In this document: positions 7,188-40,477 of the stretch, piece after piece
Layout of the letters: every line of letters starts with the position of its first letter
Position numbering within the stretch: position 1 is the stretch's first letter
Virus record (IMG/VR): IMGVR_UViG_3300010883_025067
Coordinates: 1 to 64,000 of that record
Length of the DNA: 64,000 nucleotides
From: a virus
Direction: 5' to 3' (one strand)
Program-made: the position numbers and the translations under genes
The notes under the pieces: model-generated
Database searches by the model: none
Seen by the model: the letters and a program-made list of their open reading frames with translations, nothing else
Told to the model about the DNA's origin: nothing

Positions 7188-7249
7188 AAGGGTTTTCTTT
7201 CTAAATTTGGTGTCTACATTTATATGGTCGTCATAAGGAGACGTGAATA

Positions 7250-9127: not shown

Positions 9128-9150
9128 ATTTCCCGCAACAGATATAGAAT
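9122..9150 (+). promoter_or_regulatory. Promoter GTGTAA-N17-TAGAAT upstream of dnaE
   Basis: Member of recurrent motif. Confidence 0.6.
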
Positions 9151-9193
9151 GATTATGAAGGGAGTAATGTTTATGCTCCTGCTTGGAAGGTAA

Positions 9194-12100: not shown

Positions 12101-12796
12101 CAGGAAATTATGACACGCCGGCCCTTTACATGCATAGATCAGATGCTTTTCACTGAGGAGGGTCAGTGGCGACCTTCAAAGATGAATAAGACATGTTTTG
12201 ACTCACTTTGCAAGGTTGAAGCCTTTGGATCTCTGGATGAAATGTCAAGAGGTGATATCAAAAATCATAGACATCTTCATGAAATTATAGTTGGAAATTA
12301 CGATCTTCTTAAGAAGGGAAGATTTGGAATGTCGAAGACAGCTGCAAAGAAAATGATGAAGGAGACAGGTAGGGTTCCCGAATTTATTCCTGAGAAGATA
12401 AGAGAAAGCTTTGATGAGCATGACTGGTCAAGGTCAACTAAGATAGCATTTAGTGTAGATCTCATGGCAGGAGCGGATGATGACATGGTATTTCCTCCTG
12501 CCTTGATGCAAAAAATTGAAAAATCACAGGTAAAAGCTATCACGAAAATGGAAGGCAACAAGAAGGATGTCGCTTGGTTCTGCATCCAGTCAATTGAAGA
12601 AAGGACAACAAAAAACGGAAAGACATTTTATCGTCTGAAGGTATGTGATAGCAGCTCTGAGAGCGTGTGGCTCCGTGTGTGGGGTAGGTTTAATCAACTC
12701 CCTGACCTGTATACAATCTGGCTCGCAGAGGTGGCTTCTAGCGAGGCGTGGGGATGTTCAACTTCTGCCTACAAAATGAAACAAATTAAAGTATAA
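9194..12796 (+). CDS. dnaE: DNA polymerase III alpha subunit (C family)
   Basis: PHP domain (HAH, TNH, ADSH), RGSGGGSLV, PDIDSD, KFDFLGL, FNKSH, C-terminal OB fold. Confidence 0.95.
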   Translation: MEKFKKSLDSVCGPPKRFAGLHAHDGSSVYDGLGYPNEHIDFVLENGMNAFALTNHGHMNSAAHAHNYAKKLKANGQQYKHIYGCECYFVDDLDEWRKEYEDHRESVRLEREAKKQSVIIEKDDDNEGLVIENENETKSERGTYPEWKRRYHLVVLAKNYVGLQNLFRLVKRSYKEGFYRFPRIDYKMLKEHSEGLIVSTACVGGRPSGLIFQEFPDAKFDDLTPSLVDDPAVLSAVMSKLENMTDRFVDAVGRENFFLELQFNKLEAQNLTNRCLLELSKKTGVPLIATADSHYCNPDLWEAREMYRLLGRMGSRGDEMPTLPEKEDLKCELYPKNAQQMWDEFRHSYDHYDFYEGSEELVKSAIERSSDIALDKCEEVWFDGEAKLPNFSTHKNSAFKQLAKQVKDGMVRDNLHKDPEYVKRIKEEMSVIKQLGFENYFLTLTKVFEKSKSRTLLGPARGSGGGSLVNYVLGITHIDPIQYNLLFERFLGLHKVAWPDIDSDVGDRDVLIDVARDLFGEDSVIPVSNFNTLKLKSLIKDVSKFYGIPFEEVNVLTGPLEREVMPRAMGDHEEKSTYVLTHEDCTKYSEPYRQFMQKYPKIADHIQTLFMEPRSIGRHAGGVLVCPDLESHMPVIKVRGELQTPWSEGMNFRHLEENGFLKFDFLGLTTLKMVEDSIRLILRNQDIEEPTFDQINEFFDANINSRYHKMDDQKVWEYIYHGGRFVQIFQFTNSGARNFCVQAKPRSIEDLATITAIYRPGPLAANVHKKYVAAGKSLDSITYEHPVLEEILKESRGFVVFQEQFMLIAQNLCGFDKGASDKMRKTLVKKSLDMNEKKAKERIELREKFVRGATDLSGMDEDKAIKLYETIEAFSSYGFNKSHAVAYAADSYYSAWLHTHYEKEWLATCLQTWNGSPKFGKIISEIKSLGYKILPPDINSSSDVWVYNEERKGFVPPLTAIKGVGKSAVQEIMTRRPFTCIDQMLFTEEGQWRPSKMNKTCFDSLCKVEAFGSLDEMSRGDIKNHRHLHEIIVGNYDLLKKGRFGMSKTAAKKMMKETGRVPEFIPEKIRESFDEHDWSRSTKIAFSVDLMAGADDDMVFPPALMQKIEKSQVKAITKMEGNKKDVAWFCIQSIEERTTKNGKTFYRLKVCDSSSESVWLRVWGRFNQLPDLYTIWLAEVASSEAWGCSTSAYKMKQIKV

Positions 12797-12804
12797 TAAC
12801 AGAC

Positions 12805-13710
12805 ATGCTAACATACCCAACACAGACACTATTTGTTGAAGGACCAGACTGTTCTGGAAAGACAACTCTGATCAGTAAGATCCACAGTGTATCAGATTAT
12901 CGATGGCACGTGATGGATAGGTCACAGCTCTCTCGTGATGTATTCAGTCGACTATACAGCAGGTCTCTCAGTTTTATTGACAGTGACTTACATAACGAGA
13001 TGTATAATCTTAACAATAGATACGTGATGCTTGATTTACCGTGGAGTGTTATTGAGAGAAGGTTTCTTAGCCGTGGTGATCCACTTCACGATCATACTTC
13101 CATGAAAAAAGTTCATGATGCTTTTACAATTAGATTTGGCAATGTGAAGATGTTTCCTAATATTATTCATGTGAGCAGAGAGACAGATGTTGATGAACTT
13201 GCAGATAGTGTTGTCGCTTTGTTGTGTGTAAGAGAGAGAGCGTTGCTCAAAGAAGTAGCCAGCGAGGTGATTCAGGCAGCTAATACATCTCCGACAAAGG
13301 AAGTCTTTCCTCTATCCTTTACACTGTATGACACCGGTGAATTCGAGGAGGCTGACCCTAGCATTCTTGACTATGAGCCAGAAACAGAATATTATGAAAC
13401 AGTTTATCGTGCACTATTAGAAAAAATAGATAATGAACTTGCAGGAAATAATGTGTACAATCGAAAAGAAGATCTGTCATCTAGGAGATTCGTATACACA
13501 GGAGATTCATGCATTTCTTTTATTCATGTAAGCCAGAGAAATTCTGTGATGGATTTTCACTGTGTGATTCGATCATGCAATGTAGCGACACTTTTTGAAC
13601 ATGATTTGAGATTTTTATATTTTTTGGCATCTGTGTGCTGGAAGAAGATTGGGAGAGATTGTGATCAGGCTAGATTAAGATTTAATTTAAATTCTGCTCA
13701 CATTATTTAG
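12805..13710 (+). CDS. dNMP kinase fused to thymidylate-synthase-like (dCMP-type) domain
   Basis: P-loop EGPDCSGKTT and DR; C-term SRR, SC, RSCN...HD, SAHII. Confidence 0.7.
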   Translation: MLTYPTQTLFVEGPDCSGKTTLISKIHSVSDYRWHVMDRSQLSRDVFSRLYSRSLSFIDSDLHNEMYNLNNRYVMLDLPWSVIERRFLSRGDPLHDHTSMKKVHDAFTIRFGNVKMFPNIIHVSRETDVDELADSVVALLCVRERALLKEVASEVIQAANTSPTKEVFPLSFTLYDTGEFEEADPSILDYEPETEYYETVYRALLEKIDNELAGNNVYNRKEDLSSRRFVYTGDSCISFIHVSQRNSVMDFHCVIRSCNVATLFEHDLRFLYFLASVCWKKIGRDCDQARLRFNLNSAHII

Positions 13711-13725
13711 AACGGAGTAAATGGT

Positions 13726-14718
13726 ATGAAAAGAGCACTTGTAACTGGCGGCTGTGGTTTTGTTGGATCAAGTTTGACACACAGACTTGTAAAAGAGGGC
13801 TGGCAGGTTGACATTGTTGATGATATGTCGAATGGTCATTTAGAGTTACTGGAAGGCCTAAATATGAGAGTTGTGTTAGTGGATCTGCTCTCAAACTTCT
13901 ATGAGTCGGACGTGGTAAGAGAGGTATCAGATGTGCATGTAATTCAGGGAGATTTCGCACACTCAGCTGTATTATCGAATATAAAGTCAGAAATATATGA
14001 TGTTGTCTTCCACCAGGCGGCAATTCCCAGGGTTCTTTTTTCTGTTGAAAATCCAGGAGTGACAACAGATGTCAATATCAGTGGTACAGTTAGATTACTT
14101 GAAGCCTGTAGGGGTAGTGTTAACAGAGTAGTCTGGGCATCCTCTTCTTCTGTCTACGGCGCCGCAGACATTCTTCCCACATCCGAGGCAACTACAAAAA
14201 ATCCCAAGTCACCGTATGCGTGGCAGAAGAGTGCAATTGAAGATATTGCAAGTCTCTTTGGTGAGCTTTATGATCTTGACATTGTGTGCCTGCGGTACTT
14301 TAATGTTTTTGGGCCAGGCCAGTATGGTGATTCACCTTACTCGACAGCTGTGTCTGCGTGGTGTCATGCAACTAAAAACGGTCTAACACTTAGAAGTGAC
14401 GGTGATGGTAGCCAATCAAGAGACATGTGTTATATTGACAACACTGTTGATGCCAACATTCTCGCTGCAACAGCAGATATGAAATTTTACGGAAAGACAT
14501 ATAACGTTTCTTGCGGTGACCAGACAACAAATCGAGAAATTCTAGAGTTTTTCACAAACAGATTTGGTCATGTTATTGTGAGGGATGCACCGTGGCGTCC
14601 GGGGGATGTAATGCATACCCGTGCTGACATTTCAAGTATTTCAAATGATCTTGGATATGAACCAACAGTTAGATTCTGGGAGGGTCTGGAGAGGACGCTT
14701 GCATGGTGGGGTATATGA
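13726..14718 (+). CDS. NAD-dependent nucleotide-sugar epimerase/dehydratase
   Basis: GGCGFVG, SSSSVYG, YAWQK, RYFNVFGP. Confidence 0.9.
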   Translation: MKRALVTGGCGFVGSSLTHRLVKEGWQVDIVDDMSNGHLELLEGLNMRVVLVDLLSNFYESDVVREVSDVHVIQGDFAHSAVLSNIKSEIYDVVFHQAAIPRVLFSVENPGVTTDVNISGTVRLLEACRGSVNRVVWASSSSVYGAADILPTSEATTKNPKSPYAWQKSAIEDIASLFGELYDLDIVCLRYFNVFGPGQYGDSPYSTAVSAWCHATKNGLTLRSDGDGSQSRDMCYIDNTVDANILAATADMKFYGKTYNVSCGDQTTNREILEFFTNRFGHVIVRDAPWRPGDVMHTRADISSISNDLGYEPTVRFWEGLERTLAWWGI

Positions 14719-18627: not shown

Positions 18628-18915
18628 TTGGAAATTTATACTGAAGATAAGATAAGCGAGATTGTGAGTCACATCAAGCGTGAAAATATTAGTATGTCTG
18701 AAAAGCTTGATCTTTTTGTGGGCCCTTCTACAGACAAGGATAGAAGACTTGTTATAAAGCCAGGGCTCAAGATAAAACATAAGAAGTCAGGCGTCGTTTA
18801 CACTGTACAAGCAATTGATCTATCTGATTTATCAAACCCAACATTGATTTGCAATCGTCCAGGGTTTGTAATGGAAATCACAAAACAGCACTTTAAAGAC
18901 TATGAGAGGCAATAA
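18628..18915 (+). CDS. Hypothetical protein (SH3-like)
   Basis: GGAG RBS; PGLKIKHKKSG.VYTV. Confidence 0.6.
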   Translation: MEIYTEDKISEIVSHIKRENISMSEKLDLFVGPSTDKDRRLVIKPGLKIKHKKSGVVYTVQAIDLSDLSNPTLICNRPGFVMEITKQHFKDYERQ

Positions 18916-19610
18916 TGTCAGACTTTACTAACAAGAATCTGCGAGACAACATACGTGAATCATTAAGACTTGATGACAATGAAGAGCTAAATGAGGCATA
19001 TGTTGCACAGCTAAAGCAGTATAGCCTGCCCACTGAGATGTTAAGCGTAGCCAACAAGAGGAATCATGTTGAGCTTTATGAGGGTTACATCGAAAACTTT
19101 AATCGTGTGAGTGCTGAGCTGGATACTGCTGATAGATCTGTAGCAAACTCTAACCACTCACAGTACAGATCATTGAAGATTGATGAATCATACAATATGA
19201 ATGCAGCATATCTTCATGAGCTTTATTTTGCTAACATTAGTGATCTCCACAGTCAGATACCAATGGATTCACTTTCATACATGAGACTTTCTCGCGATTT
19301 TGGTGGTTTTGATAAATGGCAGGAGGATTTTATCGCATGCTGCAAGGCATCAAGATGTGGATGGGCTGTGACTGTTTATAGCACATATCTTCAGAGATAT
19401 ATGAATTGTGTCGTTGATTTACATAGCTTGCAGATTCCAATCGGTGCGTATCCTGTTGTTGTTATGGACGTATGGCAACATGCATATTATCGAGACTACT
19501 TGAGAGATGTGAGAACATATGTGCATGCAATGATGAAGCAACTCAATTGGACAGTTATTGAAGAGAGGTTTCGTAAAGCTGACAAAATTCAAAAGGCACT
19601 GAGGACTTAA
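18915..19610 (+). CDS. Fe/Mn superoxide dismutase-like protein
   Basis: H..LY..Y, HELYF, GWAV, DVWQHAYY. Confidence 0.85.
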   Translation: MSDFTNKNLRDNIRESLRLDDNEELNEAYVAQLKQYSLPTEMLSVANKRNHVELYEGYIENFNRVSAELDTADRSVANSNHSQYRSLKIDESYNMNAAYLHELYFANISDLHSQIPMDSLSYMRLSRDFGGFDKWQEDFIACCKASRCGWAVTVYSTYLQRYMNCVVDLHSLQIPIGAYPVVVMDVWQHAYYRDYLRDVRTYVHAMMKQLNWTVIEERFRKADKIQKALRT

Positions 19611-19612: not shown

Positions 19613-20224
19613 ATGGAAATCAATAAGAAAATGATCAGAAGACTTATTCTGGAACAGATGGAAGATATGCTATCAGCAGAGGATGAGACTGATAGAACAA
19701 GATTGGGAGTTGATTCTGTGGATGACCAGATAGATTCTTTTTTGATAAAGTTTGAGAAAGACTCAGTTTCTCCTGAGGGTGCACTTTCAGAGATGAGTGC
19801 AAGATCATTAGTAGACCTCTTGCTTGAACAAGAAGAGGAGGCTGAGGATACACCTTCTGAAGAAGAACCAGCTGAGGCAGAAGAGGCAGAAGTTCCAGAG
19901 CCTGAGGATAGCACAAAGATCGATGTGACAGAGCCTGTTGAAGAGATTCAAAAGCTTCCATTAAATATCGATGCCTTTACAAAGAGAGTTGCAAGACTTG
20001 TAATGAATAATGTTATTTTACTCGATGTGAAATCAGTTATTTTGAATCGTGCGAAAAATTATCTACTTGAGAATTATGACCAAGGCCACGTTGACCAGAT
20101 GAGAGAGATCCTTGATACACAGTTTGATTTCAATCTTGAGGGAAGGGAAGACACTCCTACTGCCCCATACGCTGTAGGTGCATATGCAGGAGGAACCGGA
20201 GGCTCGGGAGGCGGCGGCGGATAA
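19613..20224 (+). CDS. Acidic hypothetical protein (possible head/core protein)
   Basis: MIRRLILEQ and LLLEQ motifs; Gly tail. Confidence 0.6.
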   Translation: MEINKKMIRRLILEQMEDMLSAEDETDRTRLGVDSVDDQIDSFLIKFEKDSVSPEGALSEMSARSLVDLLLEQEEEAEDTPSEEEPAEAEEAEVPEPEDSTKIDVTEPVEEIQKLPLNIDAFTKRVARLVMNNVILLDVKSVILNRAKNYLLENYDQGHVDQMREILDTQFDFNLEGREDTPTAPYAVGAYAGGTGGSGGGGG

Positions 20225-22208: not shown

Positions 22209-23975
22209 ATGCGTGTCATAGTAAAGAAAGATGCTTTGGAAGAAGCACTTTTAAAGATCATAAGTGAGGATCGAAGTCATCAATCAGCTAGAATTGATAC
22301 GATTGTAGGTGCAGATGATGATGAACCTATCGAGCCAACACCGCAAATGGCTGTGCAGCTATCAGTTGATAAGCCTCCTGTAGATGATCCAGCATATATG
22401 CCCTCAAATGTCGAGGAGCTAGGTCGTGCAGCCTCTGTTATATCTGCTGAGGTGCCTTCAGATCAAATTGAATTTTTTTATAGAAAGCTCCACAGACTTT
22501 TAGACAGTGCCCTAGACAGACATGATGCCAAAACTTACGAACAGTCTCTGTCTGAATCGAAAATTCGAGAAAGTGTTCGAATGATTCTGGAAGCCGATGA
22601 CGATGATCTCGATGATATTAAGCTTGCTATAGAGGATCCTGTCTCTGAGACAGCTGATAAGATAATTGATTACATTGTAGCCAACCCATCATTTTTTCAA
22701 GACATCATTGGTCTAGATCCTGAAACTGGTAAGCCGATGACCAGAGCTGCAGATCCACGGCTTGTGCAACTTCGTGTTTTGAGTCAGATGCAAAAAAATT
22801 CAGTCATTCAGAATATTCTACGAAAGAGTGAGATGTCAGAAGATGAGAAGAAAAATGTTAGAGTAGCTGTTGCTAATGAAATGCTTAGATTTGCAAAACG
22901 AGAGGTTACACCAGAAGAAGTTTCTGGATATATTGAAGCAGGAAAGGCAGAGACAGCAGCCCGTATTCCAGCTAAAGAGATGGTTAAGGTAAGAAAGGAA
23001 ACTGGGTTTGAAGGCCTCGAGCTTATTGCAGCGCTCAGAGATCGTGCTGATGAGATAGAAGCAATGGGAATGGAGGATAATGCAAGCGGGCTTAGAAAAC
23101 TTGCAGACGAAACTGAGCAAGAAATTACACATCCTGAGGAATCTGTTGATCCAATTGCAGCAATAGAGAAAATCAATCCGCATGAGGCAGCAAAGATTCG
23201 CAAGCAGCTAAGAGATGAAATTCTGGAAAAAGAAGGGATAGAGCTTAGGATGTCACAACAAGCATTACAAGCACTAAAGGAAAAAATTGCGGATGAGACA
23301 GGATTAAAAGTCAACAATATTCAGAATATTCTCTATGATGACCTTAAAGTATTCGGATTCAACCCAGAGGATGCTATTAAGCTAGGCTTTCCAACTGATA
23401 AAAAAATTCCAAGCACATACGATCCAATGAAGTTAATTGCGCAGAAGAAGATCGTCGGCACTGTCTATGATCTATTCAGATCAACAATACGAGACTATAT
23501 TGAGAGTATTGGGTATGATGATGAGGCTGAAGCCAGTGTCTTAGCTTCACTGCTTGATGATGATATCGCAACCTTTCCTGGAGATGGAATCGACGGATAT
23601 GTGAAGGTTCAGAACACAGCTATTACTCATAGAGATATGGATCCTGATTCACAGCAATACCTTAGTGTTAGAAATTCATTTGAAGCTGTTGTGGCATTTA
23701 TTCAGGGCGTCGCAAAGGCCATCCTCGATCCTGAAAAAACAAAGGGTGCTAAAGAGGGAGGAGTCAGAGCGTTTATGCAACAGATGAACACAGATGGTGC
23801 ATTTCGTCGCCAGTCATCAGATGAAGTGTTAACAACAAGGAATTTTGAACAGTACATGAATGGTTTGATCGATAACATTCAGAATGTCATTTTGGATGAG
23901 AATATAGCATATAATATTCTTGAAAAGGCACTGAAGACTGCTCCTAAAAGAACTAAAAAGTTTTTAAGGAAATAA
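22209..23975 (+). CDS. Large hypothetical protein (possible internal head protein)
   Basis: GAGGAG RBS; ATATTTA upstream; IISE and MILE motifs. Confidence 0.7.
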   Translation: MRVIVKKDALEEALLKIISEDRSHQSARIDTIVGADDDEPIEPTPQMAVQLSVDKPPVDDPAYMPSNVEELGRAASVISAEVPSDQIEFFYRKLHRLLDSALDRHDAKTYEQSLSESKIRESVRMILEADDDDLDDIKLAIEDPVSETADKIIDYIVANPSFFQDIIGLDPETGKPMTRAADPRLVQLRVLSQMQKNSVIQNILRKSEMSEDEKKNVRVAVANEMLRFAKREVTPEEVSGYIEAGKAETAARIPAKEMVKVRKETGFEGLELIAALRDRADEIEAMGMEDNASGLRKLADETEQEITHPEESVDPIAAIEKINPHEAAKIRKQLRDEILEKEGIELRMSQQALQALKEKIADETGLKVNNIQNILYDDLKVFGFNPEDAIKLGFPTDKKIPSTYDPMKLIAQKKIVGTVYDLFRSTIRDYIESIGYDDEAEASVLASLLDDDIATFPGDGIDGYVKVQNTAITHRDMDPDSQQYLSVRNSFEAVVAFIQGVAKAILDPEKTKGAKEGGVRAFMQQMNTDGAFRRQSSDEVLTTRNFEQYMNGLIDNIQNVILDENIAYNILEKALKTAPKRTKKFLRK

Positions 23976-23976: not shown

Positions 23977-24381
23977 ATGAAAGCTTTGATAGACCTTGTG
24001 GATAAGAGATTGCTAGAGGGTAATTCCTTATCTAACAGTGTGGGTCAAGCACTGGGATCGTTGAAGACCACACTACCTGATCCGTTACCGATAGAGGTAA
24101 AAAATCCGGAATGGATTCTCTTACAAGATCCTGAGAGAATCGCCAAAACTTTTGAATTTGATAGCTTTGGTAACATGAGATATTTCATTGATGAGTTATT
24201 GCTTGAACAAGAGAGAATGAATCATCACTCTTTGATTATGATAGACCATATGACAGTCAGTGTAGAGACATATACACATTCACTAAATGCAGTGACAGAG
24301 CAGGATTTGCTGCTGGCTAAGTTTTGTGATGAAATATTTGAGGATACGAGATATTTTGAAGGAAAAAATAAAGATGTCTAA
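23977..24381 (+). CDS. Pterin-4a-carbinolamine dehydratase-like protein
   Basis: KTFEFDSF, E.MNHH, YTH...VTE.D.LLA. Confidence 0.8.
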   Translation: MKALIDLVDKRLLEGNSLSNSVGQALGSLKTTLPDPLPIEVKNPEWILLQDPERIAKTFEFDSFGNMRYFIDELLLEQERMNHHSLIMIDHMTVSVETYTHSLNAVTEQDLLLAKFCDEIFEDTRYFEGKNKDV

Positions 24382-24759: not shown

Positions 24760-24909
24760 ATGAGTAAAGAATTTGAATTTGAAAAGTTTATGGATGATAT
24801 CTGCAAAAAAGAATCAGTGACTAATAGTGAAAATCAGGTGCAGGAAGATGAATCTCCTCAAAGAAATTATCGTAAGCTATACCGAGAGCTGTGGCAAAAT
24901 AGAATTTGA
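24760..24909 (+). CDS. Small hypothetical ORF (49 aa, not in track)
   Basis: ATAATTA at 24736; GAGG RBS; MSKEFEFEKFMDDI...WQNRI*. Confidence 0.6.
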   Translation: MSKEFEFEKFMDDICKKESVTNSENQVQEDESPQRNYRKLYRELWQNRI

Positions 24910-24923
24910 TACGGAGAAAAGAA

Positions 24924-25643
24924 ATGAGCGATATAAGACTTGATAGTGCCAGAGATGTAGAGCTATTCCTTAAAATCTTAGCTGAGGAGAGTGTCAGGGA
25001 GGCACAACGATCAGTCTCGTCTATTGACCCGATGCAGAGTCAAATTGAAAAACAGGTGAAGCAGGACAAATCAATCTATGATCTAAGAGAGCAAGATGGA
25101 CCGCCATCGGGTGAAGATGAGGTAGCAAAACCTGCTGAGGATTCTGAGGCTGGGGCAGAAGCTGAGACTGAGACAGGGGAAGACGATTCTGGAGAGGGTC
25201 TTGAGGTTTCACTTGACAGTGTTGCAGACAGCATCAAGACACTGCGAAGCGGTCGATCTGTTGATGACAGAGAAATTAAGGCACAGATGCGTGCCTATTT
25301 TGATAGACTAGATGCACCAGAAAGACAGGCGCTGCAGGCCTTTATGGGAGCATTTGCAAAAATTTTAACAAGTAACGTCACTGGAGCAGATGCGCAGGAT
25401 CCAAGTGATCCACCTTTGAATATAGCCATGTCTGGTGATGAGCCCGAACCTCAAGGCACTAAGGCAGCAGCACAGGAAGAAGAGCCAGTAGCTACCGAAC
25501 CTACTGAAGAGGAAGAAGAGGAAGAAGAGGAAGATGAGAAAAAGGGTGCTGAGGACACCACACCCCCAGTCCCAATTACTCCTGGTGGACCCCAGCGTGT
25601 TGCTGAGATTAGAAGACGCGTTCAAAAGCTAATGATCAGATAA
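24924..25643 (+). CDS. Acidic hypothetical protein (scaffold/core-like)
   Basis: GGAG RBS; ILAE and LRE motifs; poly-Glu. Confidence 0.65.
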   Translation: MSDIRLDSARDVELFLKILAEESVREAQRSVSSIDPMQSQIEKQVKQDKSIYDLREQDGPPSGEDEVAKPAEDSEAGAEAETETGEDDSGEGLEVSLDSVADSIKTLRSGRSVDDREIKAQMRAYFDRLDAPERQALQAFMGAFAKILTSNVTGADAQDPSDPPLNIAMSGDEPEPQGTKAAAQEEEPVATEPTEEEEEEEEEDEKKGAEDTTPPVPITPGGPQRVAEIRRRVQKLMIR

Positions 25644-27236: not shown

Positions 27237-27883
27237 TGGACTTTTTCACATCAGACTTACATTTTGGACATAGAAATATTATCAAGCATTGTGATCGACC
27301 CTTTTCGAATGTTGATGAGATGAATAGTGCCCTGATTAACAACTGGAATAGCATGGTCAACAACGATGATCGAGTAATAGTTGTGGGTGACATGTTTTTG
27401 TGTGGCAAAGAAATAATGCCTGAGATAATGTCACAACTAAATGGTTATAAGATTCTTGTAAAGGGAAATCATGATCTGAGTCTCAAGAAGATGAAGGAGA
27501 TTGGATTTGATGAGTGTCATAGAAAAATGAGTTATACACTGCCTGGCGGTCAAAGAGCGCTTGTGCAACATCACCCGATACCCGAGAAGCTGCTTAGCGA
27601 TCATGATCTCTTGATTCATGGACACATTCATATATCACCAAAGGTCAGAGGTAAGAGAATCAATGTCAGCTGTGACATTTGGGATTTTTCACCAATTCAG
27701 GTCAACAGACTGTGTGGTCTAGTCTCGACAAAAAAGAGTGAAGTGTCAAGTGAATGGTGTGATATCCGTCTGGATGGCGAAAACCTTCTGATACACTTGT
27801 CAATTAACATGCAAGATTTTCCCGGTGCTGTTGAGGAAATATATAAAGTGATGCAAGGTCATTGGCCGAGGAGAAGAGAATGA
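27236..27883 (+). CDS. Calcineurin-like metallophosphoesterase
   Basis: SDLHFGH, VGD, GNHD, HGHIH. Confidence 0.88.
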   Translation: MDFFTSDLHFGHRNIIKHCDRPFSNVDEMNSALINNWNSMVNNDDRVIVVGDMFLCGKEIMPEIMSQLNGYKILVKGNHDLSLKKMKEIGFDECHRKMSYTLPGGQRALVQHHPIPEKLLSDHDLLIHGHIHISPKVRGKRINVSCDIWDFSPIQVNRLCGLVSTKKSEVSSEWCDIRLDGENLLIHLSINMQDFPGAVEEIYKVMQGHWPRRRE

Positions 27884-30800
27884 AGCTTGGGCTTTACGGG
27901 GGAGGATTCAAACCCTTTACAACTGGGCATTTTGCAAGGTTGGCTGACGCGATACATGATAATGACAAGGTGTACTTATTTTACGGTATGCAGCAAGTAG
28001 AGCCAGCTAGGTATGGGAAGAAAGGCCAGCAGCTAAAATCGAAACAGAAGTTCAGAGATATTGGAAAAACCGGAAGAATGTATGATGAGAAAGTTGCTGA
28101 GTCTATCTTTCAAATATACAAGACTGCTCTTGAGAGAATCCCAGAAGTCGAGGTGATTCTGGTACAAAGTCAGGCTAGGGACGAACAAGGAAATCTCGCT
28201 GCAGTTCGAGCACCTGTAACAGCGATATTCAAGAATCTTGAGGAGTTTGTTAAGAATCCCGACATGTATGAAAAGGTTACTATCTATGGAGATAAATCCT
28301 CGATGGCACCGTACATGAAAAGTCCAAAGTTTAAAGACCTTGTGAGAGTGGGAAAGCTCCAATTCGGTGGTGCTATTCCTGAAAATCCAGAAGATTACCT
28401 GGATCCGGACAGGCTAGATAGACTAATGACTCGCGGCGAAGAAGAAGCCCGTGACGCACTAAAGGGATATTATGCAGACTTAGAGGGAGAAGATAGAAAG
28501 GAACTATCAGATGAGGATATCACACAGCTACAATCTGTCAGAGGTACTCGAGTTAGAGATCTTGCAGCTTCTCCAGAGACAACAGAAGAAGCTAAGCGCT
28601 ACCTTCCTCCTTTTCTTAACAGTGATGAAAAGGACAAGATCATTCAAATTCTTCTGGGTAGCATAGATGAGTCACTTATAAAGCCAGCAATTTCAGAAGC
28701 TGTTGTAAAAAGAGCAGCAACAAAGTTTTCTGCTATAAGGTTGCTATCAGAGCAAGATGATAAAAGTGCTGTTGGGCCTGGTGAGGAAGCACACATATAC
28801 AATCTGTATGAGGAGCTGGGAATGCCCCTCAAGGACATCATTGAGATAGGTCATTTAGGATTGAAAGGAAAGCTAGAGAATGTTCAGGAGAAAATGGACG
28901 GTCAGTTTCTGGCATTCACAGTTGTCGATGGTCAGCTAAGATTTTTCACCAAGATGGATCTTCAGAGTCAGAGGGCAAAGGATAAGCGGCTAGAGTCGAT
29001 TCGAGCAGGCGGACCCGGCGGAGGCATGACTTTAGATCAGATCATGTCTGCTTATACAGGAGATAGATCAAATATCGCAGATGGATTTGCAATCGCTTAT
29101 GAGGCATTGGAGCCTGTAGCACTACCATATCAGGATTCACTCTTCAGAAATGGAGAGGTTGTGATGGCATCACAGATAATGGTATCAAAGAACCCTAACA
29201 CAATTCTATATAACAAGGACTCTCTAAGGACAGTCCTTGCTATCTCTTTAACAGGTGAGCCTGTTAATCAAGATGCACTGTCATCCTTTAAGTCAGAGAT
29301 GCGTGATTCCTCGACGGATGCTTTTACCATGGACGAGGTACCCACAGCCTCTCTTATGAAAGGGCTTGACGAGGATGATAGTGAGCTTGAGCAATTAGAG
29401 AAAGATCTAGAGTCAGTTGTTGCAGAGGTGGGACTTTCAATTAGTAATAATACAGTTGGTGATTACGTCAATGCGAGATTAGAGGAGTTCATCAGGGAGA
29501 AATATGAGTTTATTCCCGATGACTTTGTCCCTGGAGTCGCTGACAGATTTATGACAGGAAAGGGAAGAATTGCCCTACAGCTTAAGAAGGTAGTATCACC
29601 TGAAGAGTACCAGCGCTTCCGATCGCTTGATAGTGTGAAGACCAGAGTGGTACAAGAGGCAATTGTTCCACTTGAGAACATTATTCAGAGGCTGGGCATC
29701 ATGATTATTGATAAGCTCGATCTCGCCCTTCAGGCTAGTAATCAGGAAGATCTGCTAGGATTTGTTAAAGACGTTAGGGGTGAATTTGAATCTGGGTTTA
29801 ATTTTGGTTTGGGATCTGAAGATGAGAAGACGTTAGAGGGGATTCGTGTAGCCTTGGCGAGACTTGAGGCCAATGAAGATTTATTTACTCGCGCCACAGA
29901 AGGTATCGTCTTTACACACAACAATAAGACATATAAGCTAACCGGTCTTTTTACACCCATTAATAGATTGCGTGGATTCTTCTCATACGGCAAGGCAAAA
30001 ATGCCAGACCGAGGAGAAAGTAAAGATCTAAGTGAAACAGTAAGCAAAATTTTAATGAAGATTCTTTCCGAAGGAGGAAAGGCCTTTAAGCATAAGGATG
30101 AGCAGGGAAATGAGATTGTTGCAACATCTGAAGATAGTATATCTAGACAGCAGGCTGACCGGATAATACAAGATCTTGAGAAGAATCTACTGGAGCCATT
30201 GGGCATCAAGTTTTTACCTGTAGGTAGTACAGCAACTGACAAGCAGATGATAGGTGACATCGATCTTGTTGTCAGTGAACCTGATAAGGGGACACTATAC
30301 CAGAAAATGTTGAGTGCTGCATATCTCAGTGATGAACTTGTCGAAGGTGTGCCACGCGTTCTAAAGGTCGGTCAACTTGTTGCTATCATGGTTAAGGATG
30401 CAGAGACAGGGCAATTATTTCAGGTTGATCTGTTTCCAAGTTCTAACATGGACGATACATCCTGGGAACTCTCGGGAGGAGGAGAAGGCAAGGTTAAGGG
30501 TGAGTATCATAAGCTAATGATTTCTCTTCTTGCTAAAATAAAAGGTGAGAGAGAATCAACACCAGACAGGGTTGTTAAGTACACAGTAGCTTTTCCGGGC
30601 GGCTTACGTGAAAAAGTTAATGACATCGAAGATGAGTCAGGAAGGATAGCTGATCCTGATGATTATCTGCCTAAGCTGGGTGTGCAGGTAGAAGATAAGC
30701 ATTCTGTTAAAATCTTTGAGGATCTCGTGTCTCACATGGTGGAGGCGGATACATCTGAATTTAGAGAAGCCTTAGAGAGATTTGAGGAGTATATTGGGAA

Positions 30801-32181
30801 TAGATTAAATGCCAAGTCAGAGAAGATAAAGGGCGAGGCCCAGAAGACTCTTGATGTGATCAATGTTGCATTTTTTAAAACCGCACCAGAAAGTGAATTA
30901 GCTGAGTTGCACTTTAGACAGAATGTTAGAGCGCTGCTATATGAGAATTCTGAAGCATATGAGAGCGCGAAATCATTCACTGAAAAGTCAAGAATCATCT
31001 TTAACATGTTTAAATCACCTGATTTTTTCGGAAGTGACATACAGAAAATAATCAATGTGTCAGGTGCAAATAAGTTAGTCAGACTTGGCTTGGCACCAGG
31101 TGCAGATGATCGTCATGATATCAGTAAGATATTAAATCTTATGTATGATAGCTTATCACCTGATCGTACGAGGGGTATCATCGAGCTTGCACCTGATGAG
31201 CATCCTAATCCCAGTAGCAAGTATCTCGCATATGTCATGCCTGATCTCGATGATCTCATGGTGATTTTTGGAATAGCCGGTGTCACCGGCGGCCAGCGCA
31301 AGGCTGGATATGTGTATGAGATCGATGTGGGTGAGAATCTTAAAGCAGCGGGAATCCAAGCACGAAGCGGAAAGGATAACTCTGTATCTGATGTCTATGT
31401 GCCCATGGTCAGCGGAATGCTTGGTATCGAGGTCAAGTTACCAAATGCTCAAGCTGGAGAGCCCACATTAAAGTATGACTTTGACAAGGGTGAATTCTTT
31501 GCTTCAAACCCTAAGCCGCAAAATCAGGATATTGCAGATCTTATAAATATGGATCCAACAGCACTTGAGGTGAATAGACGTCTGACACTTGTGAGAGATG
31601 TGATAAATGACTATCGGGCTGAGAATGACCTTCCTGAGATAGAGAGCATACTCGCTAAGATAAGCAAAAAGGAGTACAGGGATGTGGTGTTACCCGCTCT
31701 TCGAAGCAAGGGAGAGAATATTTCAGGTGCGTTGCTTGCTGTTTACACTGTTTCAGCAGATATACTTCGGAAATATTACATGCTTAAAAAAGCAGGTGTA
31801 GTCCAGGTGAAGGGAAAGGGATTATTTCACCTGCACCCAGACTTCAAGATAACGTTAACAGATGAGAGCGGCAACAGTAGATCATCAGAGTTTTTTGACT
31901 TCTCACCTGCGCAGGGTGCAGTTTACTTTAGAAATTTCAGAGGTGGGAACTATGGGATTAGATCGCAGCTCAAAAATTCACCACTGCGGAGATTAAAACA
32001 GTCTGGTATTGATCTTGATGCAGAGAGGGATCGCGATGAGTTTGCTAAGCTCGTGTCAACTTTAAATCTTCCAGATCCAATGTCAGTCGCTGCTGAGAGC
32101 TCTTCTGAGCCTACAAATGAGACTGCAATTGTGGCTCGGGCACTAAAGAGCTTAATTTTAAGGTACAATGGAAGAGTCTGA
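27880..32181 (+). CDS. Multidomain protein: HIGH nucleotidyltransferase + ligase-like + Pol-beta NTase + PD-(D/E)xK nuclease
   Basis: GGFKPFTTGH; QEKMDG...EGIVF...YKLTG; VGS..GDID..QVD; SDV..IEVK; ATG overlaps upstream stop. Confidence 0.7.
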   Translation: MKLGLYGGGFKPFTTGHFARLADAIHDNDKVYLFYGMQQVEPARYGKKGQQLKSKQKFRDIGKTGRMYDEKVAESIFQIYKTALERIPEVEVILVQSQARDEQGNLAAVRAPVTAIFKNLEEFVKNPDMYEKVTIYGDKSSMAPYMKSPKFKDLVRVGKLQFGGAIPENPEDYLDPDRLDRLMTRGEEEARDALKGYYADLEGEDRKELSDEDITQLQSVRGTRVRDLAASPETTEEAKRYLPPFLNSDEKDKIIQILLGSIDESLIKPAISEAVVKRAATKFSAIRLLSEQDDKSAVGPGEEAHIYNLYEELGMPLKDIIEIGHLGLKGKLENVQEKMDGQFLAFTVVDGQLRFFTKMDLQSQRAKDKRLESIRAGGPGGGMTLDQIMSAYTGDRSNIADGFAIAYEALEPVALPYQDSLFRNGEVVMASQIMVSKNPNTILYNKDSLRTVLAISLTGEPVNQDALSSFKSEMRDSSTDAFTMDEVPTASLMKGLDEDDSELEQLEKDLESVVAEVGLSISNNTVGDYVNARLEEFIREKYEFIPDDFVPGVADRFMTGKGRIALQLKKVVSPEEYQRFRSLDSVKTRVVQEAIVPLENIIQRLGIMIIDKLDLALQASNQEDLLGFVKDVRGEFESGFNFGLGSEDEKTLEGIRVALARLEANEDLFTRATEGIVFTHNNKTYKLTGLFTPINRLRGFFSYGKAKMPDRGESKDLSETVSKILMKILSEGGKAFKHKDEQGNEIVATSEDSISRQQADRIIQDLEKNLLEPLGIKFLPVGSTATDKQMIGDIDLVVSEPDKGTLYQKMLSAAYLSDELVEGVPRVLKVGQLVAIMVKDAETGQLFQVDLFPSSNMDDTSWELSGGGEGKVKGEYHKLMISLLAKIKGERESTPDRVVKYTVAFPGGLREKVNDIEDESGRIADPDDYLPKLGVQVEDKHSVKIFEDLVSHMVEADTSEFREALERFEEYIGNRLNAKSEKIKGEAQKTLDVINVAFFKTAPESELAELHFRQNVRALLYENSEAYESAKSFTEKSRIIFNMFKSPDFFGSDIQKIINVSGANKLVRLGLAPGADDRHDISKILNLMYDSLSPDRTRGIIELAPDEHPNPSSKYLAYVMPDLDDLMVIFGIAGVTGGQRKAGYVYEIDVGENLKAAGIQARSGKDNSVSDVYVPMVSGMLGIEVKLPNAQAGEPTLKYDFDKGEFFASNPKPQNQDIADLINMDPTALEVNRRLTLVRDVINDYRAENDLPEIESILAKISKKEYRDVVLPALRSKGENISGALLAVYTVSADILRKYYMLKKAGVVQVKGKGLFHLHPDFKITLTDESGNSRSSEFFDFSPAQGAVYFRNFRGGNYGIRSQLKNSPLRRLKQSGIDLDAERDRDEFAKLVSTLNLPDPMSVAAESSSEPTNETAIVARALKSLILRYNGRV

Positions 32182-32449
32182 TCAAGGAATGAATAGAATT
32201 TTAGAGCAGTTACACTTTGTTGCATCCTATGTTGGAGATTCCGATGATTGGGTGACTGTAAAGAAGGAGATTCTTCGAGGAATACCCTCGCCGCTGCGCA
32301 AAAGATTCTCTCGTCGTGATTCGAGAACAAAGGAGCAGTGGTTGAATAATTTTGAGAAGGAGCTAATTATTTACTATAAGGAGCAGACAGGTGTCGACCT
32401 AAAGCTTCGTACACTTGCAGAGAGAAGGGAGATGTTTGGTGTCCTCTGA
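32168..32449 (+). CDS. Hypothetical protein
   Basis: Overlapping operon ORF. Confidence 0.6.
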   Translation: MEESDQGMNRILEQLHFVASYVGDSDDWVTVKKEILRGIPSPLRKRFSRRDSRTKEQWLNNFEKELIIYYKEQTGVDLKLRTLAERREMFGVL

Positions 32450-33209
32450 TCGTGAACAGATAAAGTATATTGTGAGAAACCTCCTTAGTGAGAAAGTCGG
32501 TGATGTGGGTTTCAAGCTAGGCCAGCGTGGTCAGGAAAATAAATTTATGACATTTTTTGAGCTGTACGGACAGGCTCCGGCTAAAAAACAATTACTTTTT
32601 TTCAGAATTCCACAGTCACTAAAAACATTTGTGGGAGCAGCCACGTATTTGACGCTGATTGGAGGAAAGGATGTTGATAGAAAATTGGCTCAACATCTCG
32701 GAGTTGGTAGCGGTGATTTTGCGGCAGATTTTTCAAAAATTCTAGTAGGTATTAAAGAAAAAGGGAATGCAGGATTTAAAGAGGTCTTTCCAACCGTAGC
32801 TAAGCATTTTGCAGAAGTGCCGGGACAGGAGGCTGAGAAACTGAGCATAGGAGATATTTCTGCTTTGAAGGAAAGTGTATCAAGTGACTTAGAGCGTGTC
32901 ACGAGCAAATTGGGTGATATTGCAAATGCTAGTGATTTACAGGAAATTATCACTAAATACGGAAGCTTTGTCGGTGCTGATGTTGATATAAATGAAATCT
33001 CTGACTTTTTGGCAAAGCATAGCGCAGAGATAACAGGTGACTTAGCTGCTCTTGAAGATACACTGAGAAGAAAAGAAATTCCTGAATGGATCGATGACAT
33101 GTTTGGAGAGTGGCGCCAGGGGTTTAATGATCTGATCAAAGACTTTCCAGAGCAAAAAGATAATATGATGGAGATATTTGATCATGCTAGAGAAAAGCTT
33201 TCTCTCTAG
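32439..33209 (+). CDS. Hypothetical protein with LLSE motif
   Basis: GGAG RBS before GTG; IVRNLLSE. Confidence 0.65.
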   Translation: MSSDREQIKYIVRNLLSEKVGDVGFKLGQRGQENKFMTFFELYGQAPAKKQLLFFRIPQSLKTFVGAATYLTLIGGKDVDRKLAQHLGVGSGDFAADFSKILVGIKEKGNAGFKEVFPTVAKHFAEVPGQEAEKLSIGDISALKESVSSDLERVTSKLGDIANASDLQEIITKYGSFVGADVDINEISDFLAKHSAEITGDLAALEDTLRRKEIPEWIDDMFGEWRQGFNDLIKDFPEQKDNMMEIFDHAREKLSL

Positions 33210-34585: not shown

Positions 34586-36196
34586 ATGATGCAAAATAGC
34601 TTTAAGATTGTTAGGTTTGATATTGATGCCAGAGAGGATCTGCTACGAGGAGTTAATATTTTAGCAGATGCTGTAAGAATAACAATGGGACCTCGTGGTC
34701 GAAATGTTGTGATTGAGCAGCCGGGACAACATCCAATTCTAACCAAGGATGGTGTTACAGTTGCAAGGGCAGTTAATCTTAGAGATTCTTTTTCAAATCT
34801 AGGCGTTCAAATGATTAAGGAGGCTGCATCACGTACTGCTGATGTTGCCGGAGATGGCACAACAACAGCAACTGTGCTATCACAGGCAATTTATGCTGAA
34901 GGTTTAAAGATGCTTGCCGCTGGCTACTCTGCATCAATTATAAAAAAAGGAATAGACTTTGCAGTTCACCAGGTCATTGAAAACTTAAAGAATATCTCTA
35001 TTCCCGCTGCGGGTGATAATGAGATCAGGCAGATTGCAACAATTTCTGCAAACGGAGAAAAAGAGATAGGTGATCTAATATGCAAGGCAATTGAGTCAGT
35101 TGGAAAAGATGGTGTTGTGACAGTTGAGGAGGCCAAGGGATTCAATAGTAGCCTAACAATCGTTGAGGGAATGCAAGTTGAAAGAGGATACCTTTCTCCT
35201 TATTTTGTAACCAACCAGGACAAGATGACAGTAGAGCTTAACGATCCGTATATTCTTCTTTGCAACAAAAAGATAGACAGCATGAAGGAGATAACATTGT
35301 TACTAGAAAAGGTTCTGAATGAACAGCGTAGCTTACTTATTGTTGCAGATGACGTCGATGGAGATGCACTTCAAGGTCTTGTAGTTAATAAAATGAAAGG
35401 GTCACTTAGGATTTGTGCTATCCGTGCTCCAGGGTTTGGTGAATCTCGCGTAAGCATGTTGCAGGACTTAGCTGTAACATTGAATGGAAGGGTATTTACT
35501 GCAGTGTCTGGAGAATCGCTAGAAGGAGTAGAGCTTAAAGATCTTGGTGCATGTAAGAAGGTGATAATAGGAAGAGGTACTTCCGTTTTCATAGGTGGGT
35601 TAGGATCACAAGAAGCAATCAGCGCAAGAGTTCTTGAATTGCAAAGTCAGATGGAGTCTGACAATGCTGATGATGCTGAGGTTGATGCATTGCGACTTAG
35701 AATCTCAAAGCTAAGTGGTGGTGTTGCAATTTTACGCGTGGGCGGTGCAACAGAGTCTGAGTTGCGAGAAAGAAAGGATAGAGTGGATGATGCTCTTAGT
35801 GCAACTCGAGCAGCGATGCAGGAAGGAATTGTACCTGGAGGCGGCGTTGCCCTAGTCAGAGCGTCTGAATTCAAGCTAGACAGATCAGAGAAGCTTGATT
35901 ATGAGGTTGGAACTAATGTGGTTAAAAATGCGTGTCAAGCACCGTTACGACAGATAGTGGAAAATTCAGGTGGCACACCTGATCTCGTGCTGGCAAAGAT
36001 CAAAAGAATGAAGACAAATCACGGATATAACGCACTGACTGATGAATACGGTGATATGCTTGTCATGGGAATCATCGATCCTCTTAAGGTTGTTAGAGCA
36101 GCACTTGAAAATGCAGCATCTGCTGCAGGCATGATGCTAACTGTTGGATGTGCAATGATTGATGACATAAGTGAAGAACAGGGTAACGATTTCTAG
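34586..36196 (+). CDS. groL: Chaperonin GroEL
   Basis: [33 protein letters not shown]; no GGM tail. Confidence 0.96.
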
Positions 36197-36239: not shown

Positions 36240-36620
36240 ATGTCGAAAGAGTCAAAATTTAGAATGATTGTGAGTCACATTCTTGAAGAGCAGGAAGAAA
36301 TGCGGCTCAAAAGAGATCTTGTCAATGTCACATGCCTTTTGACGATGGTAACAGATGCTCATGTACCCGACACACTTACTCGTATTCGAGTGTTGCCGAC
36401 TGTTTCTGTTGTGGGTCAGAAGGAACCAGTACAAAGAACACCAAAGGGTAAGACCATGCTTGAAATTTACGTCAAGTATCTACCAAGATCTGGTAGTAAC
36501 TACAAAAATTTGCTATCTTTAAGCAAGCTCATCAGGAGATTACCTGGTGTGAAGATAGTTAGAATCTTGACATTGGATGGCAGGAAAGTAACATTCAAAG
36601 GAAACCCAATCGTGGTGTGA
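36240..36620 (+). CDS. Hypothetical protein (possible ferredoxin/ACT-like fold)
   Basis: IRRLPGVKIV; N-terminal ILEE motif. Confidence 0.55.
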   Translation: MSKESKFRMIVSHILEEQEEMRLKRDLVNVTCLLTMVTDAHVPDTLTRIRVLPTVSVVGQKEPVQRTPKGKTMLEIYVKYLPRSGSNYKNLLSLSKLIRRLPGVKIVRILTLDGRKVTFKGNPIVV

Positions 36621-39949: not shown

Positions 39950-40012
39950 TCTTCATAGTGAAAATACACAGGCTAGAGAATATTTAATAATGTTTTGCAG
40001 GGGCACACCACA

Positions 40013-40477
40013 ATGAAAATCAGTAAAGGTCAACTACGAAGAATTATCAGAGAGGAGCTAGAGCGGCACCTTCTATCAGAACAATCGGTGATGTCCGCTG
40101 AGGAAATCAAAAAGAAGTATCCCCCAGGTGGACCAGACCATAAGGCAGCACAGATGGTTCGCTTGGCAGCGAAGTTTCCTGCTGGGGCGGATTCTCAATA
40201 TGTAGCATCAGTAGATTCCGGTTCCGAGGCATACAATCCGAAACACGTGCTCGATGCAGCTAAGAAGAAAGGTGTAACACCTGATTCAGCATTTGAAAGT
40301 CATCTCGACACTCTCGGAAAAAGCCTCTCAGCTGCTGTCAGAGGGATGTTTACAGGTCACCGCGACACAGGAACCATGTCCAAAGCATCTCTTATTAACT
40401 ATGTTCTCAAAAATCATGGAAAATTTTCCAACGATGAAGTTAAGAAAGTAACGATGGCCTGGGCAAAATCTAACTAG
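40013..40477 (+). CDS. Hypothetical protein with MKISKGQLRRIIREE...LLSE leader
   Basis: ATATTTA at 39980; recurrent motif. Confidence 0.7.
   Translation: MKISKGQLRRIIREELERHLLSEQSVMSAEEIKKKYPPGGPDHKAAQMVRLAAKFPAGADSQYVASVDSGSEAYNPKHVLDAAKKKGVTPDSAFESHLDTLGKSLSAAVRGMFTGHRDTGTMSKASLINYVLKNHGKFSNDEVKKVTMAWAKSN

Follow-up and report, generated by a model that had tools for sequence, protein, structure and literature searches.

A four-enzyme phage protein whose joining helices resemble removable address tags

Why a phage should carry four enzymes in one polypeptide, joined by short amphipathic helices that each end in a glutamate, is the question raised by P0001, a protein of 1433 residues encoded in a 64,000-nucleotide stretch of viral DNA (positions 1 to 64,000 of the IMG/VR record IMGVR_UViG_3300010883_025067; this whole stretch is hereafter called the window). 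A first-pass annotation, made from the letters of the DNA, had read the protein as four enzymes with protease-site-like linkers, packaged in the phage head, cut apart there and injected. We suggest that P0001 may be cut into a repair kit within the head, because the helices that join its parts look like removable address tags. In the reading that we favor, with a probability of about 0.45, P0001 is a modular set of four enzymes acting on polynucleotide ends, namely an adenylyltransferase, an RNA-ligase-type sealing enzyme, a minimal family-X polymerase (PolX) and a PD-(D/E)xK endonuclease, and its tags would be cut in the head.

The open reading frame (ORF) is open from 27862/27880 to 32181 on the plus strand. 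Its ATG at 27880 is preceded by a Shine-Dalgarno-like site, GAGGAG, and overlaps the TGA of an upstream phosphoesterase gene (ATGA). A set of 5.8 billion proteins yielded 54 homologs of P0001, with identities down to 35%, and 876 matches at E ≤ 0.001 were obtained from a representative library. Every motif quoted in the first-pass annotation was found where it had been placed, and the catalytic residues of all four domains (D1 to D4) were invariant among the homologs. With this start site and these homologs, the 1433-residue ORF is real, and neither it nor its motifs are products of chance. The sole family match of P0001 was to PHROG 3462 (NMNAT; E 0.003), a comparison with PDB sequences gave nothing usable, and the homologs carried no Pfam annotation. 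A tblastn search of 50,697 phage records returned two distant matches only, both to D2, one of them being a "cytidylyltransferase like protein" of Microcystis phage Mel-JY01 encoded 2.6 kb upstream of the terminase. This phage, with a D1-D2 fusion only, holds the nearest relative in a cultured phage. No description of the four-enzyme architecture was found in the literature searched.

Four predicted enzymes in one chain

P0001 was modeled with homolog alignments as two overlapping halves, residues 1-733 (mean predicted local distance difference test score, pLDDT, 83) and residues 720-1433 (mean pLDDT 89). The modeled folds and the conserved residues bore out the four enzyme assignments of the first-pass annotation, and refined two of them: D2 is nearest to RNA ligases, and D3 resembles a minimal family-X polymerase. 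In D1, the signature GGFKPFTTGH at residues 8-17 is of the TxGH form in P0001 and of the HxGH form in relatives. Across 13 homologs, G16 and H17 of this first signature, GGFKPF(T/H)xGH, were invariant, as were G222 and R226 of a second, ISxTxxR-like signature near the C-terminal helices, [RS]-G222-[TS]-x-[VI]-R226. Structural comparison with VIA aligned the D1 fold with PPAT and NadD at Z 10.0-10.2 over 150-177 residues, nearly the whole target chains, and matched PPAT and NadD/NMNAT equally well. As modeled, D1 is an adenylyltransferase of the PPAT/NMNAT type.

D2 contains the motifs of a covalent nucleotidyltransferase in order: motif I, QEKMDG at 336-341, with K338 as the nucleophile; motif III, LFxNGE (F422/G425); motif IIIa, NxxIxY444 (N440/Y444); motif IV, EGIVF at 674-678 (E674-G675); and motif V, YKLTG at 685-689 (K686). 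The residues E337-K338-x-D340-G341 were invariant in 37 family members and 38 stand-alone homologs, motifs III and IIIa were invariant or nearly so, and the whole series was conserved even at 22-25% identity. Motifs IIIa and IV stand unusually far apart, at about 230 residues, with a large helical insert of about 200 residues between them. In a wide VIA comparison, all matches at Z ≥ 6.5 were RNA ligases (Z 6.5-7.9, 172-207 residues aligned), including NgrRnl (5cot, Z 7.9), T4 Rnl2 (7.8), Trl1 (7.4), REL1 (7.0) and T4 Rnl1 (6.9), whereas DNA ligases reached Z 5.4-5.9; Foldseek also found T4 Rnl1. The Pfam family RNA_ligase (PF09414) was matched at E ≤ 0.1 by 23 of the 38 stand-alone D2 homologs (best 3.7e-5), and D2 of P0001 itself gave no Pfam match, lying below the curated score for PF09414. 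The best structural matches are thus among the nick-sealing Rnl2/Rnl5 ligases (T4 Rnl2, NgrRnl, DraRnl), which have the KxDG, EG and K motifs in common with D2; D2 differs from them in its insert and in lacking their N- or C-terminal specificity domains. These data suggest that D2 is a covalent nucleotidyltransferase of the RNA-ligase branch, with strand sealing as its predicted activity.

In D3, the motifs VGSTATD (781-787), GDIDL (792-796) and FQVDLF (847-852) supply the residues G782, D793, D795 and D850, all invariant, and S783, nearly so; Q848-x-D850 contributes the third carboxylate. Among X-family enzymes, VIA aligned D3 with the catalytic domain of Pol beta at Z 10.7 (192 residues), with TthPolX at Z 10.3 and with PolX of African swine fever virus (ASFV) at Z 9.0 (162/176), and D3 also aligned with TdT and Pol lambda (Foldseek E 3e-6 for the latter), while generic nucleotidyltransferases such as terminal uridylyl, poly(A) and CCA enzymes gave Z ≤ 8.0 over about 95 residues. 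Neither an 8-kDa lyase domain nor helix-hairpin-helix fingers were seen in the D3 model of about 270 residues, and we call it minimal PolX-like because it lacks both, as does ASFV PolX. According to the model, D3 is more than a generic Pol-beta nucleotidyltransferase: it is a minimal X-family polymerase with palm and thumb. D3-like folds in BFVD comprised giant-virus PolX and proteins of phages P-SSM2 and Atu_ph07. The latter two, Q58MG2 (Prochlorococcus phage P-SSM2) and A0A2L0UZB9 (Agrobacterium phage Atu_ph07), with Foldseek E values of 9e-9 and 5e-7, are uncharacterized proteins of 225-277 residues from cultured phages and might serve as experimental stand-ins for D3.

D4 carries the motifs SDVYV (1170-1174) and IEVKL (1183-1187), and E1147, D1171, E1184 and K1186 were invariant in 10 sequences. 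Its core aligned by VIA with HhaI endonuclease (6uke, Z 8.7, 182 residues), Hjc resolvases (Z 6.4-6.9) and I-Ssp6803I (Z 6.8); the ESM Atlas gave leads below 0.9 only, for example an R.HinP1I-like cluster at 0.85. D4 is accordingly modeled as a PD-(D/E)xK nuclease with a restriction-endonuclease-like fold, its activity being predicted.

Junction helices as putative copies of a portable tag

The first-pass annotation had described an amphipathic helix ending in L-x-E at each boundary between the enzymes. Such helices are present at all three boundaries, but they are not only N-terminal leaders, as many of them end proteins. Each is flanked on both sides by [LI]-x-E. Junction 1 lies between ISE and LSE↓Q (AIRLLSE↓Q at 285-292; here and below, the arrow marks the putative cutting position), junction 2 between LSE and LSE↓GG (LMKILSE↓GG at 725-733), and junction 3 between LAE and LYE↓N (VRALLYE↓N at 1016-1023). 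The helices were modeled with low or moderate confidence between well-folded domains. An enrichment of [LI]-x-E over the whole of P0001 was tried and rejected, with 21 sites seen and 19 expected. For [LIVM][LIVM]-x-E, three of the six sites in P0001 fall at the three module boundaries.

Comparison with relatives showed that the same helices begin or end separately encoded modules. In the alignment with split genes of the related loci L005-L019, relatives that start at D2 have an N-terminal leader (MAIhIxP...xE↓Q) homologous to junction 1. Two kinds of terminal extension are homologous to junction 3, one leading stand-alone D4 proteins at the N-terminus (M..ENDLRLLIRNILxE) and the other trailing stand-alone D3 proteins at the C-terminus. 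Stand-alone D4 proteins begin M..ENDLRLLIRNILxEQ, D3 proteins ...L.EGG or MGG, and D2 proteins MIRQLIREMLxLE..., ...LLEGG... or MGG. At the other terminus, split D1 genes end in ...E..LRxhIRGhIRG, and stand-alone D3 as well as D2-D3-D4 proteins in ...LRxxIRxxL, in each case directly before the stop codon. Because the helix starts or ends the split forms, each separately encoded module is itself tagged, D1 at its C-terminus, D2 at its N-terminus and D3 at its C-terminus.

To describe this helix, a tag core was defined as [LIVMF][RK]xx[LIVM][RKS]xx[LIVM] and counted in the window and eleven related loci. Its density per 1000 residues was 2.65 in N-terminal windows of the proteins, 2.20 in C-terminal windows and 0.80 in the interior, a roughly threefold enrichment at either terminus. 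An [LI]-x-E followed 31 of the 41 N-terminal tags (76%) against a background of 19%, and a glutamate preceded 17 of the 27 C-terminal tags against a background of 28%; for the 50 interior tags the same backgrounds apply, with a glutamate before 37 and [LI]-x-E after 22.

The D2-D3 junction allows the glutamate to be assigned. Glu731 was invariant in all 36 homologs that have sequence upstream of D3, and leaderless D3 homologs begin exactly at M-GG, with the initiator methionine in place of the junction glutamate. The same h-x-E↓GG junction stands ahead of two unrelated folds, D2 and D3, and four homologs without the D2-D3 helix nevertheless retain hLSE↓GG. On these three grounds, the junction glutamate appears to be part of a removable extension and not of the enzyme. 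We infer that the junctions are copies of a portable amphipathic tag helix, approximately hRxxhRxxh, that is used on many unrelated proteins. What is new here is that the tags are bidirectional, that they coincide with the places where a multi-enzyme set is split, and that the glutamate belongs to the extension.

A tag with [LI]-x-E near the N-terminus was also observed on many unrelated proteins of the window, at 18915-19610, 19613-20224, 22209-23975, 23977-24381, 24906-25643, 32415-33209, 36240-36620, 39995-40477 and 59480-60133. Among them are a superoxide dismutase of the Fe/Mn type (Pfam Sod_Fe_C, E 1e-17) and, at E 6e-15, a pterin-4a-carbinolamine dehydratase. The 588-residue protein encoded at 22209-23975, without a match in Pfam or PHROG, shows ...LLKIISE↓D at its N-terminus and contains three tag cores in its interior (KIRESVRMILE, KIRKQLRDEILE and FRSTIRDYIE), and may be another multi-module or polyprotein-like cargo. 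At the C-terminus of P0001, the sequence TNE↓T is followed by the amphipathic helix IVARALKSLILRY, and the stand-alone D4 homologs P0082, P0093, P0100 and P0114 show a conserved C-terminal LNE↓S followed by ..NRWQLLAGIK; this C-terminal helix of the D4 family looks like a second, C-terminal type of tag.

Split modules and the conserved cassette

Stand-alone and shuffled modules bearing the same type of leader, which the first-pass annotation had proposed to look for, were found in related phages, and the split genes break exactly at the junctions that it had drawn. D1 is a gene of its own in L005-L007, L009, L010, L012, L013 and L016-L019; in L013 and L016-L018 each of D1, D2 and D3 has its own gene, as do D2 and D3 in L014. 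Since D1, D2 and D3 are often separate genes in the same order, split at the junctions, the enzymes appear to work as a set. A representative search further revealed stand-alone forms of about 400 residues (D2), about 270 residues (D3) and 400-480 residues (D4), together with many fusions. Domain architectures differ widely among the homologs, with D2 as the constant core and D1 optional or separate in most relatives. In other lineages D2 is fused in both orders to the Pfam domain CTP_transf_like, and the pairing of adenylyltransferase and ligase is therefore old and recurrent; to our knowledge, no function has been described for such a pair of an (H/T)xGH adenylyltransferase and an RNA-ligase-type enzyme.

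Several variations on this arrangement were seen. In L005-L019 the split D1 genes end near-identically in ...LRxhIRGhIRG (at about 10700-10850 of each locus), and the next gene, usually starting MAIhIxP..., begins within one or two bases or overlaps; this resembles a conserved split point with translational coupling. The P0001 lineage is without the D1 C-terminal helix and stop. At least 18 homologs (P0036, P0040-P0049, P0059 and others) have D4 swapped for a different, unannotated C-terminal module of about 400-450 residues, and in P0021 and P0026 about 240 additional residues are inserted between D2 and D3.

The P0001 gene is the last of a cassette that also contains a PolX-like paralog and a metallophosphoesterase gene (Table 1), and this cassette is conserved and translationally coupled. 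The order of the upstream nucleotidyltransferase paralog, the metallophosphoesterase, D1, D2, D3 and, in part, D4 is kept in 13 of 17 related IMG/VR contigs, where the full series reads o22209 (numbered by its start in the window), pterin dehydratase, o24906, PolX-like paralog, metallophosphoesterase, D1, D2, D3, D4 or another module, o32168, further genes and GroEL. The remaining four loci (L014, L016-L018) have D1, D2 and D3, or D2 and D3 only, without the flanking genes. The paralog has an N-terminal tag, MRSEELLRLLIRE↓S, and a junction ...LIAE↓GG, and in a multiple alignment with the D3 family it retains GDxD, QxD, W, VKG and other invariant residues. Its paralogy is visible in that alignment only, a BLASTP comparison of the 426-residue ORF with P0001 being not significant. 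For the metallophosphoesterase, the best named match was the NCBIfam family PdeM, a ligase-associated DNA-damage phosphoesterase, which was weak and below threshold.

The genome that hosts the cassette is that of a giant marine phage of the T4 type. The source record comprises 75.9 kb and was rated 24% complete by CheckV, from which a phage of about 300 kb was estimated. The window also encodes a J-domain protein (6153-7187), a DnaK (7250-9127; 56-60% identity with bacterial DnaK in tblastn) and GroEL (34586-36196), and the phage carries a DNA polymerase of the PHP type (Pol III alpha-like). Scans for sigma-70 promoters and for terminators stayed at chance level, and by eye no upstream motif was common to the tagged genes and the head genes of the related genome G001 described below.

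Table 1. Positions of P0001, its modules and junctions, the other cassette genes and the head module of a related genome
Feature	Residues	Position	Strand	Remarks
PolX-like paralog, first cassette gene, distant D3 paralog	426 aa	25956..27236	+	D3-family alignment; conserved synteny
Metallophosphoesterase gene, untagged	215 aa	27236..27883	+	PHROG 547, E 6e-47; Pfam Metallophos_2; conserved synteny
P0001 gene (whole)	1433 aa	27880..32181	+	88% identical orthologs in L003/L004
D1, predicted (H/T)xGH nucleotidyltransferase of NadD/PPAT/NMNAT type	1-265	27880..28674	+	model pLDDT 80-93
Junction 1	266-295	28675..28764	+	low-confidence helix 273-292, pLDDT below 50
D2, predicted ATP-dependent RNA-ligase-type nucleotidyltransferase	296-711	28765..30012	+	VIA, Foldseek, invariant motifs
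Junction 2	712-731	30013..30072	+	model helix 714-731, TVSKILMKIL
D3, predicted minimal family-X polymerase (palm and thumb)	732-1001	30073..30882	+	model pLDDT 87-98
Junction 3	1002-1022	30883..30945	+	helix LHFRQNVRALL; model helix 1004-1029, pLDDT 62-73
D4, small alpha/beta N-subdomain, then predicted PD-(D/E)xK nuclease core	1023-1412	30946..32115	+	VIA, invariant residues
C-terminal tail	1413-1433	32116..32178	+	amphipathic helix IVARALKSLILRY after ...TNE↓T
G001 head module		L022 (G001:C1:86000-105000), 3932-14624	minus	

Proposed processing in the head and competing explanations

In T4, internal proteins bind the core of the prohead through a capsid-targeting sequence, and the protease gp21 cuts after glutamate; in Alt, trimming affects both termini (ITE-6 and LTE-619), and gp22 has numerous internal cutting sites (PMC5694885, PMC3012670). 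A Pfam search detected a gene for a protease of the gp21 type, Peptidase_S77, at 88-89 bits in two related genomes, G002 and G001, the latter carrying an 88% identical ortholog of P0001 and having its protease gene in the region G001:C1:95505-95921 (L020). The T4-like head module of G001 consists of terminase, portal, S77 protease, an acidic scaffold of 494 residues and a gp23-like capsid protein of 646 residues; for its replication, this phage nevertheless uses a polymerase of the PHP type (Pol III alpha-like). Adjoining the protease is a tagged protein of 161 residues, ...LKGIVKECLVEILQE↓G (MAGIMSTISRSALKGIVKECLVEILQE↓G), and the capsid protein contains ...QLLRE↓SNS, an LRE↓S site about 28 residues ahead of its conserved core. 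The tag family with its [LI]-x-E sites, the Glu731/MGG pattern, and the gp21-type protease with a head module in a relative together make head loading and cleavage of P0001 plausible, at somewhat less than even odds.

The process might run as follows. The tags, each with an [LI]-x-E↓ site on its enzyme-facing side that fits the specificity of T4 gp21-type prohead proteases, would load P0001 into the prohead core; the protease would then excise them to give four free enzymes, D3 with a Gly-Gly N-terminus; and the enzymes would enter the next cell along with the DNA. There, the set would repair broken nucleic acid by cutting or trimming it, filling or extending it, and sealing it. Phage DNA with nicks or gaps is the likeliest substrate, and the repair might pass through a ribonucleotide patch. 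DNA is favored as the substrate because of the PolX thumb, the restriction-enzyme-like nuclease and the hint of PdeM. For the Rnl5 ligase DraRnl, the proposed task is the sealing of ribo-patch nicks that repair polymerases leave behind (PMC5397189), and the RNA-ligase type of D2 would by analogy fit such a patch or RNA repair. The RNA-tailing or anti-defence function suggested in the first-pass annotation was found to be no better supported than DNA break repair, toward which the PolX and restriction-enzyme-like folds lean. The broadest form of the proposal, in which a bidirectional tag code of amphipathic helix and glutamate site loads many enzymes into the head and P0001 is a true polyprotein that yields a virion-delivered DNA break-repair kit, the phage equivalent of the repair trio packaged by ASFV, with mature enzymes that may depend on their freed Gly-Gly N-terminus, is in our view doubtful.

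A number of observations weigh against processing in the head as a repair kit. P0001 opens immediately with the first D1 strand, so that an N-terminal tag is absent and the tags are internal and C-terminal, while the T4 targeting sequence is, as far as we know, an N-terminal signal only. The gene sits among chaperone and replication genes, far from a head module; the T4-type late promoter TATAAATA occurred at chance level; and the S77 protease is not in the window's own record of about 76 kb, which is 24% complete. The D2-D3-D4 part stays fused in most relatives, possibly as one working chain, and the benefit of packaging a superoxide dismutase or a pterin dehydratase is not obvious. As for the enzymes, P0001 gave no match above threshold in Pfam and NCBIfam, the structural Z scores of D2 and D4 (7-9) are middling, D1 has no obvious place in a repair set, and the cassette holds no 5'-kinase or lyase module. 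The family has no cultured relative, and the substrate of the set could be DNA or RNA.

As the main alternative, P0001 might be an uncleaved cytoplasmic multi-domain repair enzyme, an analog of bacterial LigD, in which the helices are flexible linkers and, where the genes are split, docking helices, the C-terminal helix of one subunit pairing with the N-terminal helix of the next. Split D1 proteins ending in ...LRxhIRGhIRG, followed by a gene that opens with a helix (MAIhIxP... or MMIRQLIREML...), would suit such docking, and the fusions maintained in most relatives, the missing N-terminal tag of P0001 and the position of its gene outside the head module point the same way. We nevertheless regard this as unlikely, since the same helix occurs on unrelated single enzymes (the dismutase and the pterin dehydratase) with no neighboring partner, E731 is invariant only where an extension is present, with leaderless forms starting MGG and LSE↓GG retained where the helix is lost, and [LI]-x-E follows N-terminal tags at about four times its background (76% vs. 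19%). The helices might also not be capsid tags at all, and might recruit phage chaperones or address another compartment. Their Leu/Ile core flanked by basic residues would presumably fit a DnaK-binding motif, and we take them to resemble the encapsulation peptides of bacterial microcompartments. This explanation gains from the DnaK, J-domain protein and GroEL encoded by the phage, from the closeness of the cassette to the GroEL gene, and from tags at either terminus, as in encapsulation peptides, and on metabolic enzymes. We rate it as quite improbable, because no shell or microcompartment genes were seen, the glutamate sites that bound the tags and the MGG starts would be left unexplained, and a tagged protein lies within the head-core gene cluster of G001.

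Two further explanations concern the task of the set. T4 Pnkp and Rnl1 repair tRNAs cut by host anticodon nucleases, and the enzymes of the cassette could repair RNA likewise, whether packaged or cytoplasmic: healing of 2',3'-cyclic phosphate ends would fall to the phosphoesterase, reconstruction of 3' ends to the PolX-like enzymes and sealing to D2. The greater similarity of D2 to RNA ligases (Trl1 and T4 Rnl1, both tRNA ligases, among them) than to DNA ligases, the Pfam RNA_ligase matches among the homologs and the adjoining metallophosphoesterase gene are consistent with this. Set against it are the lack of a 5'-OH kinase module in the cassette, the closeness of D3 to templated X-family polymerases (Z 10.7 over 192 aligned residues, vs. 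about 6 over about 85 for CCA-adding and poly(A) enzymes), the resemblance of D4 to the DNA endonucleases HhaI and Hjc, and PdeM as the weak best named match of the phosphoesterase, and RNA repair thus appears improbable. Finally, D1 could be an NMN adenylyltransferase and P0001 an enzyme mainly of nucleotide and NAD+ metabolism, restoring NAD+ during host defence, for example. The weak PHROG NMNAT match, the JGI name on one homolog and the fold matches with NadD, NMNAT and NadM would agree with such a role; however, PPAT matches D1 as well as NMNAT does, D1 is optional or separate in most relatives with D2 as their constant core, and D1 shares its chain with a ligase, a polymerase and a nuclease, with no Nampt or Nudix partner present. 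We therefore consider a role in NAD+ metabolism very improbable.

Returning to a tagged repair set processed in the head, P0001 would combine two known kinds of protein, T4-type tagged head cargo and multi-domain end-repair enzymes. With the capsid-targeted and gp21-processed proteins of T4 (IPI-III, Alt and gp22), the tagged proteins have in common short amphipathic peptides on unrelated proteins, [LI]-x-E boundaries and an S77 protease in the clade. They differ in that the tags are longer (about 15-20 residues), of other sequence, and placed at N- and C-termini and between domains, and in that the proposed cargo is a single chain of 160 kDa comprising four enzymes. ASFV packages in its virion the ligase NP419L, the PolX O174L and the AP endonuclease E296R, which repair viral DNA before replication (PMC12172490). 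This trio, with its ligase, palm-and-thumb PolX and endonuclease, may by analogy serve as a precedent for packaging such enzymes; it consists of separate proteins of a eukaryotic virus with a DNA-ligase and an AP-endonuclease fold, whereas P0001 is fused and has an RNA-ligase-type and a PD-(D/E)xK domain. LigD, of bacterial non-homologous end joining, likewise brings sealing, nucleotide addition and end cleaning together in one chain or operon, with variable order and split versions. It is an analogy only, with no homologous domain: P0001 has an RNA-ligase type where LigD has a DNA ligase with an OB domain, and PolX where LigD has an archaeo-eukaryotic primase-polymerase, while the cassette has a metallophosphoesterase in place of the LigD PE fold, and no Ku.

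Even without packaging, the cassette would be a new LigD-like repair assembly built of wholly different folds, and it defines a widespread, unnamed RNA-ligase-type branch, about 400 residues long, in which fusion to an (H/T)xGH adenylyltransferase recurs. If the processing proposed here is true, P0001 would be the first known case of a phage polyprotein delivering a nucleic acid repair kit ready for use, which would suit virions that gather sunlight or oxidative damage or that meet host nucleases on entry. If the tags do load and release cargo, they would mark a large and searchable set of proteins that uncultured ocean phages inject together with their DNA.

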